This document shows, piece by piece, positions 11,111 through 63,797 of a stretch of 64,000 bases of DNA. The notes beneath the pieces were generated by a model that was not told the DNA's origin, ran no database searches, and was given only the letters and a program-made list of their open reading frames with translations. Position 1 is the stretch's first letter. Every line of letters begins with the position of its first letter. The translations under genes were made by a program, and so were the position numbers. Origin of the DNA: Lingula anatina (Eukaryota > Animalia > Brachiopoda); NCBI GenBank assembly GCA_051362555.1, contig CM120647.1, positions 19,010,651 to 19,074,650 on the forward strand, given 5' to 3'.

Positions 11111-13413
11111 ATGACTTGCATCTCAGTGCTTGTTTATTTGCGTGTTGTCTGGCAGTTGTCTGGCAACAAACAAACGCCGTGTGCTGCTATGCTGTAGCGA
11201 AATGAGGGTTCTGCGGCGACTGCTCTAGGGTACCGTATAACTGGTTTTGCTTTTCAGACGTCAAACAGATCCTAACTATTGTAAGGCTTTGTACCGAGTT
11301 CAAAATGGGACTTGTGTAAGGAAGTTCACTTTACATAGTTTATTGCAATTTGATATCTCGCCTGGTAATTAATCCTTTCTCTCCTCTCTCTCTCTCTCTC
11401 TCTCTCTCTCTCTCAAATAAGGCAAGCAGGTAGAGAAAACCATAACTGCTCATTTTACATTACAGAAAAATCCTCACTGTGGAAAAGGAGGTTGTAATAT
11501 TTTCGGTTGTGCATGTAGAGATGGCTGTAGAAATTACTGCGGACCCGTTTCAACGTAAGTTAAGTCTTTGTCTGCCCCCTCTCTCTCTATCATTTCAATT
11601 CCATACAAATAAAGATGGATATTCTCCAGTAATTAGATTGGTATGTGCGCGGGTGTGTAAGTAAATCCTAGCAGCTAACGTCTTCCACGCTCCGTGCATT
11701 TAAGGAGTTTTCCCATACCTTATCGTACTAACTTTGGATCGCTCTATCTACAAGGGGATTCTTGCTAATTTGCAATCGAACAAAGCGGGTAAGATGTCTG
11801 TCACGCCTCCGGAAGGTGCTAGGTGGAAATTATTGTTTAGCAGCTTCAGTTGGCGTGGAAGACATCTAAGCCGCTTAAGCTGAAAGCAATTAAGCGAGAA
11901 ACCCCATAATTAATACTATTGAATAAATAAATGGAAACTGAACATGGAGTTTCCATCAAAATCATCTATACCAGTGTAACGTGACAGAGAGTCCCCCATG
12001 ACAGAAACTCCGCCTCCCATTCATTTTTACAGGTAAACCACGCCCTTGATTTTGATTCACTTCGGTCAGGCTAACCCTAACCATTCTGATTACATGGAGG
12101 GCGTACTTTCTGTTACACGAACCCTCGATTTCTTTACTTCAGTTTGGTTTACTGAGCTGACGTCCTTTTTTCAGTGTGAAATCACGTGGATGGTTGAGGA
12201 AACCAGACAGCTCTTGCAGATGCACTCGCTTAAATGGAAAGGACGCCGAGGATGGTGAGATGGACGCCAGGGGAGTGTTTAACGCCATTGATGCATAGGG
12301 GTGAGTTTGAACGATGATTGCACATCGCACTTAACAAACACTCACACACACACACACACACAGAGAGAGAGAGAGAGAGAGAGAAAGAGAGAGAGAGGGA
12401 GAGTTACAAGATACACCTATAATTAAAATATGCAATAGCAAACTTCAAGCCAACAGTAAATTGTTTCTCTTCCGTATACTAAGCAAAAGTGTAAAAGGAC
12501 ATCTAATGTTGATAAAATAACAAATTATGACACTTTGTCAACCCTTGCTAAACTACTTCTTAGTGACCATAAACTCCACAACAAAACTGGGCGGCAGACC
12601 AGGCCAAAAACTACACGTGCGACAGAATCTGTCGCCTGTGAACCCAAGGGGTAATTGAAGATGAATACCATTTTATATTCCAATGCCCAATGTACAAAGC
12701 AGTCTGAGACACCTTATTTAAGTAAAACCTCAACCTTAAATGCTGATAGAAGGTCAGCAGTCAGCTAATTCAGTTAAGGCATTCTTAATTACAAAGCGGC
12801 GTTTTTTTCTGAGTCATATTTCAGGTAAACAAAAACATCGAACTACGCCTACAGTACTGTATATATAGTGACGATAAGCCAAAAACGATAGCTTATTCAT
12901 TTAAAAATGGGCTCTGGATCGTTGAATATTGTTATGTTATTACAGCATGCTTATCATCGGAGTTTTTGTTGTTTTTTTTTTGGAATACACGATTAAATCC
13001 ACTAAAATGCTGCACATACAAACAACCTGCTGCCATGATTCAAACCCACATTACGCCATTACAACGTAACGGTCTGTAAGCCCCCAATCCCTAATATATA
13101 TATATATATATATATATATATATATATATATATATATATATATATATATATATAAATGCCCCAGCTGCATCCACAGTGTTCAAGAAGATTGCAGTTTATA
13201 GTGTATGAATCAATTCTCTACCACGGCACATCTGTGATGTGAACACCAAATTGTATTATATTAAAATATAGTTTGTTTTTTATGCTTTAGAGCTGGCTAT
13301 CTAAACTCCGATGAATTCAACGCTGCCCATTTCAACATACATGATCAGGACTGAGAAGGGGATTAAAGGAGCGTTTGAAGACTTGGAAAAAAATGTTCGA
13401 TCTTGATCAGTAA
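11111..13413 (+). pseudogene. Mytimycin-like precursor pseudogene (psi1); exons 11111..11229, 11466..11554, 12175..12300, about 13291..13413
   Basis: Same tttcagaagATG context as the intact copies. Exon 1 is frameshifted and has TGA (QQTNAVCCYAVAK*GFCGDCSR). Exon 2 is an intact 89 nt (KNPHCGKGGCNIFGCACRDGCRNYCGPVS). Exon 3 reads VKSRGWLRKPDSSCRCT...VFNAIDA* (TAG 12296-12298) with a GG|GTGAGT donor. The EF exon is decayed (AGYLNSDEF..GAFED). Confidence 0.85.
11703..11906. mobile_element. Degenerate copy of the TTCCCATACC..AGGGGA MITE family in psi1 intron 2
   Basis: Similar to 21056-21274 (ttcccatacc...ggatc...aaggggatt..gctaa...ttagcagcttc). Confidence 0.5.
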
Positions 13414-14173
13414 TGACTTTAATCTTCGCTGAAAAAGAACTGAACCCACGAAATTTAACTGAACTTAGGAATAATGTGAGGCAGAACAATGTCGCTGCTA
13501 AATAAATTCAGATTGTCAAATGCAACCAATATTGTTATTGTTATGTGCTATTTTCAGTTTGACTGATTTTTGTAGGGGAACGAAAAGAGCGCATTTCAGC
13601 ACCTATATATTAATTAATTAATTAATTAATTAATTAATATAATCCATTATTATTTCCCGGTATAAATGACATATATCCTATCTGGTTAATGGTTGGACTG
13701 GACCATTCCATGAAGCGTGGAGATGAGCTGAAACAACAGCTAGAAGACGCCACTAACAGAGACAATAAAAATAAATATAAAAAAGAGTTTAATGTAATGG
13801 CCGTGCTTTTTTATTTTTAAGAGAGCGTTTCGTCTGATTTTGCAGGTCTTAAACAATACTTATTTTTTTTACCCCAAAATGACTTTAATCTACCATACAC
13901 TGTGAGGCAATATAGGGCCGTGGGTGGATTCTGCTGACTGAAGTACGCTAGTCTCATTGTGAACGCAACCACAGACGCATCCTACAGTGCCGCCGGAAAG
14001 TAACCTTACCAAGAGGCCGCATGGACTCCCAACCCTTCCAACCAATAAAGGCCGCATGATAATTACAGGGTGGGATAATCGGCCAGTAATCTTTATCGGA
14101 CACCCAAATTAGTCCGTTCAAGGAGTACGCTCTGCTCATTCTTAATAGAGGGTACCGGAGGAGAGGGATTGTG

Positions 14174-14186
14174 CCGGAAGTGACGT
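14174..14186. promoter_or_regulatory. ETS-CRE composite motif CCGGAAGTGACGT in a locally GC-richer patch
   Basis: Exact motif, with CCAAT at about 14042; no associated CDS found. Confidence 0.3.
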
Positions 14187-61455: not shown

Positions 61456-63250
61456 TATAGACTATTAGAATAAGGAAGTCGAAAATTTTGTGATTTGTAT
61501 ACCCATCATCAAGGAGGTGCATGGGCACTTTGGAATTTTAGTGCCACAGGGTGTAGAGCTGTCCCCGGGGGGTTTGATTCTAAATACTTATGGCACAGTA
61601 ATTTCTGCTGTCTCCTCCTAGACCGTTAGCGATAGGAAATTGAAACTATGGGAATTGGAAAATACATCATCACTGGTGTGGATATGTATACACTTTGGAA
61701 TTTTAGTGCAACAAGGGGTTGGGCTGTTCCCGGGGGCTGGTTGAATCTGAATTCTTTTCACATTGTTATTTCTGCTATTTTCTCCTAGACCATTGCAGGT
61801 AGAAAGTTGAAACTTTGGTGATTAGTATACCCAGCATGGGAACTTTTGAATTTTAGTGCAACAGGGGGTTGAGCTGTCCCTGGGGGTTGGTTGATTCTAA
61901 ATTCTTTTAACATTGTATATTTTTTTAACATTTATATTTTTAAATACCTTTGGGTAAAGCAGTGGTGTGTGTGTATTTGTGTGCGTACGTGCGTGTGTAC
62001 GTGCGTGTGTGGTAATTGGTCAATAGAGGAGATCTGCTCTATGGGGAAATGCGGGGATATGCGATGGCTACCCATCGACACCATCTAGTTCATTTTTTAT
62101 CTTTATGGGTGAGATCCATTTCGTCTTCTAGTCTTTATTGAAACTACCGCCAACCTCAAACCTGTTTTCACTGCACAATTTTCTCCCATATTGATGGAAA
62201 TTATTTACAAATGAATTTTAATTACCCCAATACACCAACTAACCTGTACAAATCATATGGGAGTCGCACTTCATTCTTACCCGGTAGGACGTCCATTCCT
62301 GTTACACTGCGACTGACTTAACCACCCTCTGTTTATACGTTTTTCCTGTAATGGTAATCAAATGCAATCATAAGAAATCTTTTCTATCAAAAAATCAATG
62401 AACTTTCAAGAATTTGAACCTGCAAACAAATATCAAACGTGCATCAGCTCCTAAAATGTTCCCTGTGATTTTATTTGTTGTAGGTTAACAGGCAACGTGT
62501 TCCACTTCACCGGTGCAACTAAACAGAATACAGTGTCACCACTTTTTTCGCCTATTTTTGGGGGGTTTTCAGTAAAAAAAAATCACCAGACCTCTGAATC
62601 CTTTGTTTCGTTGATGAATTGATGATGTTTTGTCTAATGATTACGTTCAACCGGATGAAGCAAGATTTTTTAAAATGCACATTCATAAAACCTAAAGATT
62701 GTCTTTGTGATGAAAATAATTTCCACAAATGAAAATCAGTCTCAATAATCATTCTAGGCATTGCCGAACCAGTCGTTTTATTATAATCCAGACTTAGGTA
62801 AATCATTGTAAAATACCTGTACCAGTACAAACCTTTAATTTCCGTTACAAATGTTTTGATCTCTTCAGGATACAGCTGTTTACACTACTTCAAAAGCCGC
62901 TGCCTTGACTTAGTTGCACTGCTGTTGAAACCGTATAAATAACTCAAACTGTGGACGTATTTCAATCATTTCGAGACTGAGAGAGAAGTTATCAAGGATC
63001 ATTTAGGTAAAAAAAAAATTGTGTCGGTGAAATCTTATTAAAATGCTGCATAGTATGTAAGGACGCCGATTGCCCTTTTGCACACTGAGTTTTAGAGAAC
63101 ACCGTATGAATTGTCAAGTCTTTATTGTCGGCGTGCCTCTGAAAGTTTAGTATAGCTGTTGACAGAAAAGATGTTAGCTCCTCTGTCCTCTGAAATTCCG
63201 TAATTTTTGTCTTCATGTCAAAATCATATTGTCATTTCACATTTTAGAAG

Positions 63251-63797
63251 ATGATTACTTTTGCCATTTTTGCGTTAGTTGCGTTGGGTCTGGCAGCTGT
63301 AATGCAGGAAGCTGAATCTGACTGCTGTGGCACCAAATCGAAAGGGTTCTGCCCAGACTGCACGTTGGTGGGTCTACTAGTACCGGGGAATTTCATCGGG
63401 AAGTGCATTCAAAACACATTGACAACACGTGTTGTATTAGGCGAACTTTGCATTACAGGAAAAAATAATACCGCACATTTTAGTTATAAATGTGCGACAA
63501 AGCTAGAAGTCCAATTTTATATTGTTTATTAGAATTTGATACGTACAGTAAATGGTGGTCAGAAAATCATTCTGTAGATACATGTTTGTGTGCGTGCCAG
63601 TTCGTTTGTATGCGTGTGCAGTGAAGGTGGGGGTGTGCCTAGGAGGGGGATAGAGCAGAGAGAAAGAGAGAGGGAGAGAGAGTAATTGATTTACGATTTC
63701 CATTCCAGGGAACCCCTTACTGTTCATATGGAAAATGTAACATATTTGGCTGCAAATGTGAACGTTAATGTAGAGCGGACTGCGGCTCGAAAATAGA
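63251..63797 (+). pseudogene. Mytimycin-like copy E with a premature TAA in exon 2; exons 63251..63367 and 63709..63797, remainder outside the window
   Basis: MITFAIFALVALGLAAVMQEAES-DCCGTKSKGFCPDCTL|GTPYCSYGKCNIFGCKCER*(63766-63768)CRADCGSKI. The exon is still 89 nt with a GA|GTATGA donor. Confidence 0.8.

Follow-up and report, generated by a model that had tools for sequence, protein, structure and literature searches.

The Gene Cluster

We analyzed 64,000 nucleotides (nt) of the genome of the brachiopod Lingula anatina (assembly GCA_051362555.1, contig CM120647.1, positions 19,010,651 to 19,074,650 of the forward strand), a stretch that we call the window and in which positions are counted from the first letter. 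From 11111 to 63797 it contains a tandem, birth-and-death array of genes for precursors of the mytimycin type, mytimycin being an antifungal peptide of mussels. The core motif PxCxxGxCNxFGCxC occurs six times across the six reading frames of the window, at 11472, 41766, 48571 and 63715 on the plus strand and at about 22150 and about 28980 on the minus strand, and not once in 100 shuffles of the window, a result that rules out artefact or chance as the origin of the cluster.

Six copies, G1 to G6, received exon models with AG/GT ends and intron phases 0, 2, 2 (table 1). The length of exon 1 varies slightly: G4, G5 and G6 have 117 nt, G2 and G3 have 120 nt and the frameshifted G1 has 119 nt. All six copies have 89 nt in exon 2, whereas exon 3 ranges over 126–255 nt and coding exon 4 over 136–142 nt. 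A preliminary description of the window, made from its letters alone, had proposed six gene copies plus relics built on one exon plan. The plan, the copies and the relics were all recovered, but a whole precursor was not found in each copy: only G2, G3 and G5 (201, 198 and 178 amino acids, aa) are complete, whereas G4 lacks exon 4 and G1 and G6 are decayed.

The damage differs from copy to copy. In G1, a frameshift and a stop interrupt exon 1, another stop lies in exon 3 and exon 4 is decayed and frameshifted; this copy has neither a dibasic site nor an acidic repeat. G4 reads through into intron 3 and meets a stop three codons inside it. No match to an exon 4 for this gene was found anywhere in the window, including the interval between G4 and G5, and the similarity of its intron 3 to that of G5 ends near 42573. 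Judging from exons 1–3, the mature peptide of G4 could still be produced. G6 is interrupted by a TGA at 63766, and the 203 nt that remain before the end of the window yielded nothing like exon 3. G2 and G3 lie on the two halves of a 5-kb duplication (18339–23409 and 25161–30229, 92% identical).

Table 1. Gene copies, relics and spacer repeats of the cluster (positions in the window).
Feature	Position	Strand	Exons or remarks
G1, pseudogene, core of exon 2 intact	11111–13420	+	exons 11111–11229, 11466–11554, 12175–12300, from 13291
Exon-2 relic, broken by insertion and stops	18775–18957	+	ends approximate; tblastn, blastn, translation, flanks
G2, intact, 201 aa	19699–22601	-	exons 22482–22601, 22104–22192, 21459–21713, 19699–19840
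Second exon-2 relic, copied along with the G2/G3 block	25650–25831	+	tblastn/blastn, translation, duplication match
G3, intact, 198 aa	26577–29427	-	exons 29308–29427, 28928–29016, 28285–28536, 26577–26712
G4, 3'-truncated	41326–42404	+	exons 41326–41442, 41760–41848, 42198–42395; without exon 4
G5, intact, 178 aa	48141–50038	+	exons 48141–48257, 48565–48653, 49012–49206, 49903–50038
Decayed extra copy	51467–52730	-	exon-3 3' end with donor near 52712–52730; exon-4 relic 51467–51523
G6, pseudogene or fragment	63251–63797	+	exons 63251–63367, 63709–63797
Tandem repeat (15-nt unit) behind the acidic spacer, G2	21506–21639	-	Tandem Repeats Finder
Same repeat, G3	28334–28465		Tandem Repeats Finder
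Same repeat, G4	42282–42346		Tandem Repeats Finder
Same repeat, G5	49078–49149		Tandem Repeats Finder

When exon 2 of G2 was searched against longer proteins, a single match emerged, the L. anatina model LOC106165319. Over aligned residues, G3 is 95% identical to this protein (P0001) and G2 is 85% identical to it, G2 being also 84% identical to LOC106165320. Together with LOC106165317, these RefSeq models share one contig and carry the label "uncharacterized," and the way in which their exons are joined agrees with our models. The identities speak against a mytilid host, and the DNA probably comes from an individual or population of Lingula different from the reference. The family can therefore no longer be called probably unannotated, as had been supposed.

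Structure of the Predicted Precursors

In G2 to G5, a predicted signal peptide of 23–24 aa (mean hydropathy over 12 residues 2.7–2.9) precedes a CC motif. The mature part that follows has 64–68 residues (64 in G2, 68 in G5) and 12 cysteines (Cys) in each of the four genes, with the spacing 0-7-2-6-4-4-1-3-3-18/20-1. Its net charge is +4, +5, +1 and +6 in G2, G3, G4 and G5, respectively, with isoelectric points (pI) of 7.6–8.8. Behind the last Cys stands a predicted cleavage site, KRRR, KRR, RRR and RKR in the same order. The propieces of the complete genes G2, G3 and G5 have net charges of -39, -35 and -23. Both EF loops are present in G2, the first one interrupted by intron 3, and the two exon 4s tested both exceeded the cut-off of Pfam EF-hand families. 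The 12-Cys domain, the basic cleavage site and the two canonical EF loops of the preliminary description are thus all in place. We consider it probable that the intact copies are secreted and cut at the KRR or RKR site, and that the cationic 12-Cys peptides so released would act as antimicrobial, most likely antifungal, effectors of host defense.

An AlphaFold model built on 54 sequences (mean predicted local distance difference test score, pLDDT, 83.3; predicted template modeling score, pTM, 0.43) shows a Cys domain rich in strands and an EF pair, with the spacer between them disordered; with four sequences only, the pLDDT was 38.6. Both domains are confidently modeled, and the pTM indicates no fixed arrangement between them. 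The modeled EF pair resembles EF pairs of known structure (Z up to 8.3, root mean square deviation 2.0 over 58 residues). A predicted complex of the EF pair with the mature peptide scored 0.01, a value that speaks neither for nor against their association.

The acidic spacer between the two domains is encoded by a 15-nt tandem repeat. The RefSeq relatives have a spacer shorter by 25 aa, and LOC106165317 has none. Since acidic spacers of 35–73 aa are also found in amphioxus relatives, the sequences point to a lineage-specific, length-variable expansion of an anionic linker. The earlier suggestion that the spacer defines a new precursor architecture was overstated, and we rejected it on account of the repeat nature of the spacer and its variable length among relatives.

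A very acidic spacer and two canonical EF loops would also suit a different product, a secreted calcium-binding matrix protein that remains uncleaved or acts through its propiece, for example in the apatite shell. The EF-hand is a recurrent shell-matrix module in lophotrochozoans (PMC13425148), weak matches to Pfam SPARC_Ca_bdg were obtained, and the EF pair is the most conserved part of the precursor (57 of 59 aa identical between G2 and G3). Nevertheless, the supplement of the same paper, in which Lingula RefSeq accessions occur 773 times, contains neither the RefSeq accessions of the G2 and G3 counterparts nor the word Diedel, the name of a related Drosophila protein considered below. The absence of the spacer from so close a paralogue as LOC106165317, the lack of an EF-like loop in 7 of the 12 Lingula proteins of our profile search and the occurrence of the architecture in fungi and bacteria, which do not mineralize, also speak against a matrix role, and we regard it as very unlikely.

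Homology with Mytimycin

The mytimycin precursor has been defined by a signal peptide, a Cys-rich cationic peptide, a dibasic site and an anionic EF-hand extension, the last probably derived from a pre-existing EF-hand gene (PMC8004829). The same source describes mytimycins as restricted to Mytilida, with no solved structure and a disulfide pattern that is not known, and counts 18 pseudogenes among 106 mussel variants. Its table 1 gives the type II array as CC-C-C-C-C-C-C-C-C-C-C (12 Cys, of which 10 are backbone Cys). Mytimycin inhibits Neurospora crassa and Fusarium culmorum, and a 2023 review lists it with "no homologs among known AMPs," that is, antimicrobial peptides (PMC10608444).

The Lingula array corresponds to type II Cys for Cys (PMC8004829). 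In a BLASTP comparison of whole precursors, P0001 aligned with mytimycin A (P0066) over 156 columns that cover both domains (33% identity, E = 2e-17). For the Cys domain alone, all eight pairings of window genes with two Mytilus proteins scored 115–140, against 100 at most in 300 Cys-preserving shuffles per pair, in agreement with the homology first proposed. The window genes share with mytimycins the signal peptide, the type II array, the homologous mature domain, the dibasic site, the cationic mature peptide and, except in G4, the anionic EF extension. By their sequences they are type II mytimycin precursors in a new phylum. The extension of the family beyond mytilids, which had been anticipated, is borne out, and its range had even been underestimated, as the core with EF-hands is also present in fungi and bacteria.

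Expression

Four public RNA runs (X11, X13, X16 and X19) were compared with positions 11000–21780, which hold G1 and exons 3–4 of G2; about 6% of X13 and of X16 was read. The joint between exons 3 and 4 of G2 (19840/21459; 1618 nt skipped, with CT..AC ends corresponding to GT-AG on the minus strand) was found in X11 and X19, supported by one X11 contig (depth 15.9) and three X19 reads. Paralogue joints at the same place were seen in a second X11 contig and in seven and six reads of X19. Splicing of this predicted junction is thus documented in two of the four runs. It was not seen in the portions read of X13 and X16, where exonic depth was almost nil. G1 had zero read depth in the bins with exons 1 and 4 in all four runs, which is weak evidence.

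Compared by eye, a 30-nt loose end of a spliced X11 contig is identical to exon 3 of G5, and another loose end matches a G3-type exon 3 with a shorter spacer. A further X11 contig at 19701–19777 (depth about 640) has seven differences; together with a loose end that reads like the short single-EF paralogue LOC106165317, it shows that paralogues outside this window are transcribed.

Relationship with Diedel

Diedel consists of a variable subdomain, SD1, and a conserved subdomain with four disulfides, SD2, whose exposed Asn77-Ile78-Phe79 loop was proposed as an interaction site (PMC3307722). The preliminary description had noted a CNIFGCxC core in common with this protein, and profile matches agree in part: four of the five exon-2 frames reach the gathering score of Pfam Diedel (PF13164, 21.3 bits) with 23.1–28.5 bits, G5 scoring 19.0. 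None of four full-length Lingula proteins does so (17.3–20.0 or no match). At the sequence level, the Lingula paralogue P0003 matches residues 36–64 of the Diedel structure 3ZZO (E = 0.0024). Across 54 aligned relatives, eight Cys and the Asn and Phe of the loop are invariant; G5 has Ser in place of Ile. The interval from Cys2 to Cys3 is 7 residues in Lingula, which lacks SD1, versus 31–33 in two full-length Drosophila proteins, and two short Drosophila relatives (67–68 aa) are also devoid of SD1. From these alignments we infer that the mytimycin-type core is Diedel SD2 without SD1. Counts of 18/41 versus 5/54 rows, with related rows counted, suggest that Cys4 pairs with a downstream Cys.

With an E limit of 0.1, neither of the two Mytilus proteins matched Pfam Diedel, and this could explain how the connection of mytimycin with Diedel came to be overlooked. 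Fold searches with the whole model did not list Diedel, the lists being filled by EF-hand matches, so that they say nothing against a Diedel fold of the Cys domain, and the ESM Atlas gave no usable match. In a literature search confined largely to openly accessible papers, no paper linked mytimycin with Diedel or paired Diedel with Lingula; at title level, mytimycin with brachiopod gave the mussel pan-genome paper only, and mytimycin with EF-hand gave mussel papers and one review only.

Drosophila Diedel is a cytokine and antagonizes apoptosis (PMC3307722; PMC6072105). The Lingula peptide might likewise bind a host receptor through the Asn-Ile-Phe loop and dampen immune signaling or apoptosis, with no killing of microbes. 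The exon-2 matches, the alignment of P0003 with 3ZZO and the invariance of Asn and Phe in the very loop proposed for Diedel's interaction (PMC3307722) all favor such a role. It is nonetheless rather unlikely in our opinion, given that the Lingula peptides lack the SD1 insertion and have the extra Cys of mytimycin, the dibasic site and the EF pair. Moreover, the same core in fungi and bacteria speaks against one conserved animal receptor, and the rapid change of the mature part, like the frequency of pseudogenes, suits an effector facing microbes better than the ligand of a single receptor.

Divergence within the Cluster

Between G2 and G3, 23 of 24 residues are identical in the signal peptide and 57 of 59 in the EF region, compared with 45 of 64 in the mature part. 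There, 28.8 of 152.8 nonsynonymous sites differ (0.189), a proportion above those of the signal peptide and EF region taken together (3/196 nonsynonymous sites, p = 1e-8) and of introns 1 and 2 (58/671 sites, p = 0.0004). Strict positive selection, that is, a ratio of nonsynonymous to synonymous divergence (dN/dS) above 1, did not reach significance: in the mature part of G2 and G3 the ratio is about 1.5, not significantly above 1 (p = 0.48). Such rapid divergence of the mature part is consistent with a diversifying effector, without proving positive selection.

Intron 3 and the 3' flank (19200–21458 in G2, 26080–28284 in G3) differ by 2.7% and 1.4%, compared with 8–12% in introns 1–2 and the 5' flank. 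Gene conversion may have evened out the EF-hand half of the two genes.

Distribution in Animals, Fungi and Bacteria

A profile search returned 89 of 158 candidates: 12 from Lingula, 2 from Mytilus, 3 from Branchiostoma, 2 from basidiomycetes, 5 from ascomycetes, 4 from Drosophila, 1 each from Chlorella, a nematode and a mite, and 58 others. With 12 Lingula clusters among these relatives, the family is indeed expanded in the brachiopod. An EF-like loop follows the core in 29 of the 89. A wider search yielded 281 clusters at E <=0.001, and among the best 150 an EF-like loop was present in 70 and two loops in 36, counts that may be biased by the inclusion of the signal peptide and one EF loop in the profile. 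With a hidden Markov model (HMM) of the Cys core built from Lingula only, scores were 43–44 bits for Mytilus, 27–52 for fungi, 31–39 for amphioxus and 33–36 for Drosophila, the best decoy reaching 19.8.

Prokaryote genomes yielded 121 pattern matches, of which 11 were confirmed; a genome scan from one single protein query confirmed none of 118 candidates. The carriers belong to Acidobacteriota, Pseudomonadota, Planctomycetota, Myxococcota (including the isolate Cystobacter fuscus) and Verrucomicrobiota. All 11 relatives combine the short core motif with a Pfam EF-hand, and three were confirmed on the N-terminal half alone. On the core alone, two of the 11 loci are clear, because only L001 (36.6 bits) and L003 (32.1) exceed the best decoy of the Lingula-only HMM; three more scored 6–16 and six were not reported. 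The L003 gene (4842–5441) has mraZ-rsmH on one side and a UvrD-type helicase on the other, neighbors which show that its 456-kb alphaproteobacterial contig is not of eukaryotic origin. Its product reaches the Pfam Diedel cut-off and has EF-hands.

Some of these proteins have peculiarities of their own. The acidobacterial relative L001 (2350–4247) is followed immediately, in the same orientation, by a subtilisin-like protease that might serve as its processing enzyme. The genes of L002 (4926–5393) and L005 (4893–5510) have 56% G+C inside loci of 66–67%, the kind of difference that a recent acquisition would leave. P0172 (445 aa) continues beyond its core and EF-hands into an additional domain of about 280 aa, by eye similar to PI-PLC X.

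Trees placed the window genes within a Lingula clade (99/95) and did not recover Lingula and Mytilus as sisters, the deep branches being without resolution. In the wider tree, the animals fall on one side (89/92) and the bacteria have no resolved placement, so that no direction of transfer can be claimed. With somewhat less than even confidence, we propose that mytimycin, Diedel and the brachiopod peptides form one cross-kingdom superfamily, in which a secreted four-disulfide knot with an EF-hand pair occurs in animals, mushrooms and scattered bacteria and has probably moved horizontally. On this view, the EF pair would not have been acquired by mussels; it would be ancient, serving an anti-fungal or anti-eukaryote peptide as a calcium-dependent switch or as a chaperone. 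Insect Diedel would be a derived member that lost the EF pair, gained SD1 and turned into a cytokine.

Fungal proteins with a Diedel domain have been noted before, in a passage that mentions neither mytimycin nor EF-hands (PMC6980582), and the searchable papers contain no characterized core-plus-EF protein of amphioxus, fungi or bacteria. In another reading, the Lingula peptides would be deterrents or toxins released in mucus against predators, parasites or protists. Fruiting bodies are a stage known for defense proteins. In those of matsutake, a secreted Diedel-domain protein of 158 aa is the product of the most expressed gene (PMC6980582). Diedel-like terms also appear in papers on wasp venom and caterpillar setae, at the level of titles, and Myxococcota are among the bacterial carriers. 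By analogy, such a role can be conceived, but the closest characterized relative is an antifungal peptide of hemocytes, and we give the deterrent little credence.

Possible Mode of Action

An antimicrobial effector remains the function that we favor for the released peptides. After removal of the signal peptide, six disulfides would form, the eight invariant Cys making up the knot of Diedel SD2 with its exposed Asn-Ile-Phe loop. The anionic spacer and the calcium-binding EF pair (net charge -23 to -39) might mask the cationic peptide, act as its chaperone or help to sort it on its way to secretion, until a furin-type convertase releases it. The conserved loop would then bind a microbial surface, with the variable flanks tuning specificity. 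The cationic mature peptides of G2, G3 and G5 joined to anionic propieces, as in mytimycins (PMC8004829), argue for such an effector, as do the copy turnover and pseudogenes that recall the mussel family, the divergence of the mature parts of G2 and G3 and the inhibition of fungi by mytimycin (PMC10608444).

Several observations weigh against this function. Diedel, apart from mytimycin the only protein of the core family to have been characterized, works as a cytokine and counters apoptosis, as mentioned above. In 9 of the 11 bacterial relatives the linker has no dibasic site, which means that the EF pair is not in every case a propiece to be discarded. Cores from fungi, where measured, are neutral or acidic and G4 has a charge of only +1, so that killing by cationic peptides is not general to the family. 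Exonic reads are almost absent from two of the three raw RNA runs. As to selection, the dN/dS of the G2 and G3 mature parts is not significantly above 1, and between G4 and G5 dN (0.25) is lower than dS (0.43).

Surroundings of the Cluster

Upstream of the cluster, a 363-aa open frame at 1059–2150 on the plus strand matches Pfam DUF1647 (E = 2e-13) and has no relation to it. Satellite-like arrays occupy 6065–6888 (161 bp, 5 copies) and 7406–8348 (337 bp, 2.8 copies). Between G3 and G4, at 34905–40237 on the plus strand, lies an apparently intact long interspersed nuclear element (LINE), with a first frame of 345 aa without Pfam match and a 1278-aa endonuclease/reverse transcriptase frame. LINE fragments are found at 31058–31750 (minus strand) and 57496–58266 (plus strand).

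Comparison with Known Systems

Since it encodes the full type II precursor in a brachiopod, the cluster contradicts the view that mytimycins are confined to Mytilida (PMC8004829). It ties mytimycin to Diedel and to an uncharacterized core-plus-EF-hand family that reaches fungi and bacteria, and it adds numerous natural variants of an antifungal scaffold that has received little study. Through the link with Diedel, the core gains a structural template at 1.15 A and a candidate active loop that can be tested, and the presence of the architecture in amphioxus, fungi and bacteria implies either that the EF fusion is of far older origin or that it spread horizontally.

Close relatives are the L. 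anatina RefSeq proteins LOC106165319, LOC106165320 and LOC106165317, together with paralogues named "protein Diedel(-like)," which have the same exon-joined product and form one clade with the window genes. Apart from their shorter spacer, and the single EF loop of LOC106165317, which has no spacer at all, they differ in that none carries a mytimycin name. The core-plus-EF proteins of Branchiostoma, Sistotremastrum, Infundibulicybe and bacteria (L001, L003 and others) share a hydrophobic N-terminus, a CC...CN[IV]F[GC]CxC core and one or more C-terminal EF-hands. Those of amphioxus and fungi usually have 8–10 Cys, whereas the bacterial ones have other Cys-rich extensions and mostly lack the dibasic site.

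Drosophila Diedel (CG11501, PDB 3ZZO/3ZZR, PF13164) resembles the Lingula peptides in the N-terminal CC, the Asn-Ile-Phe loop, secretion (predicted in Lingula) and eight invariant Cys that probably match the four disulfides of SD2. Unlike the cytokine Diedel, the Lingula proteins have no ferredoxin-like SD1 insertion and possess four extra Cys, a dibasic site, an acidic spacer and an EF-hand pair.

The mytimycins of type II (groups A, I, J and K of M. galloprovincialis and forms of Modiolus and Perna; PMC8004829) have in common with the Lingula genes the signal peptide, the 12 Cys with a TPxC...CNIFGCxC core, the dibasic site, the anionic EF-pair propiece, the cationic mature peptide (pI 7–10 in mytimycins) and the large number of variable copies, with pseudogenes among them. 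From Cys1 to Cys8, the spacing is identical to that of mytimycin A, and the gap of three residues between Cys8 and Cys9 is found in Modiolus and Perna mytimycins (PMC8004829, File S4). The two differ in the gaps Cys9–Cys10 and Cys10–Cys11, 3 and 18–20 residues in Lingula versus 8 and 6 in mytimycin A, and in the linker, which has 20–22 aa in Mytilus and which the repeat-coded acidic spacer extends to 36 aa in the Lingula RefSeq proteins and to about 60 aa in G2 and G3. Finally, the host of the Lingula genes is a brachiopod and their antifungal activity is a prediction from sequence, whereas mytimycin itself inhibits fungi.

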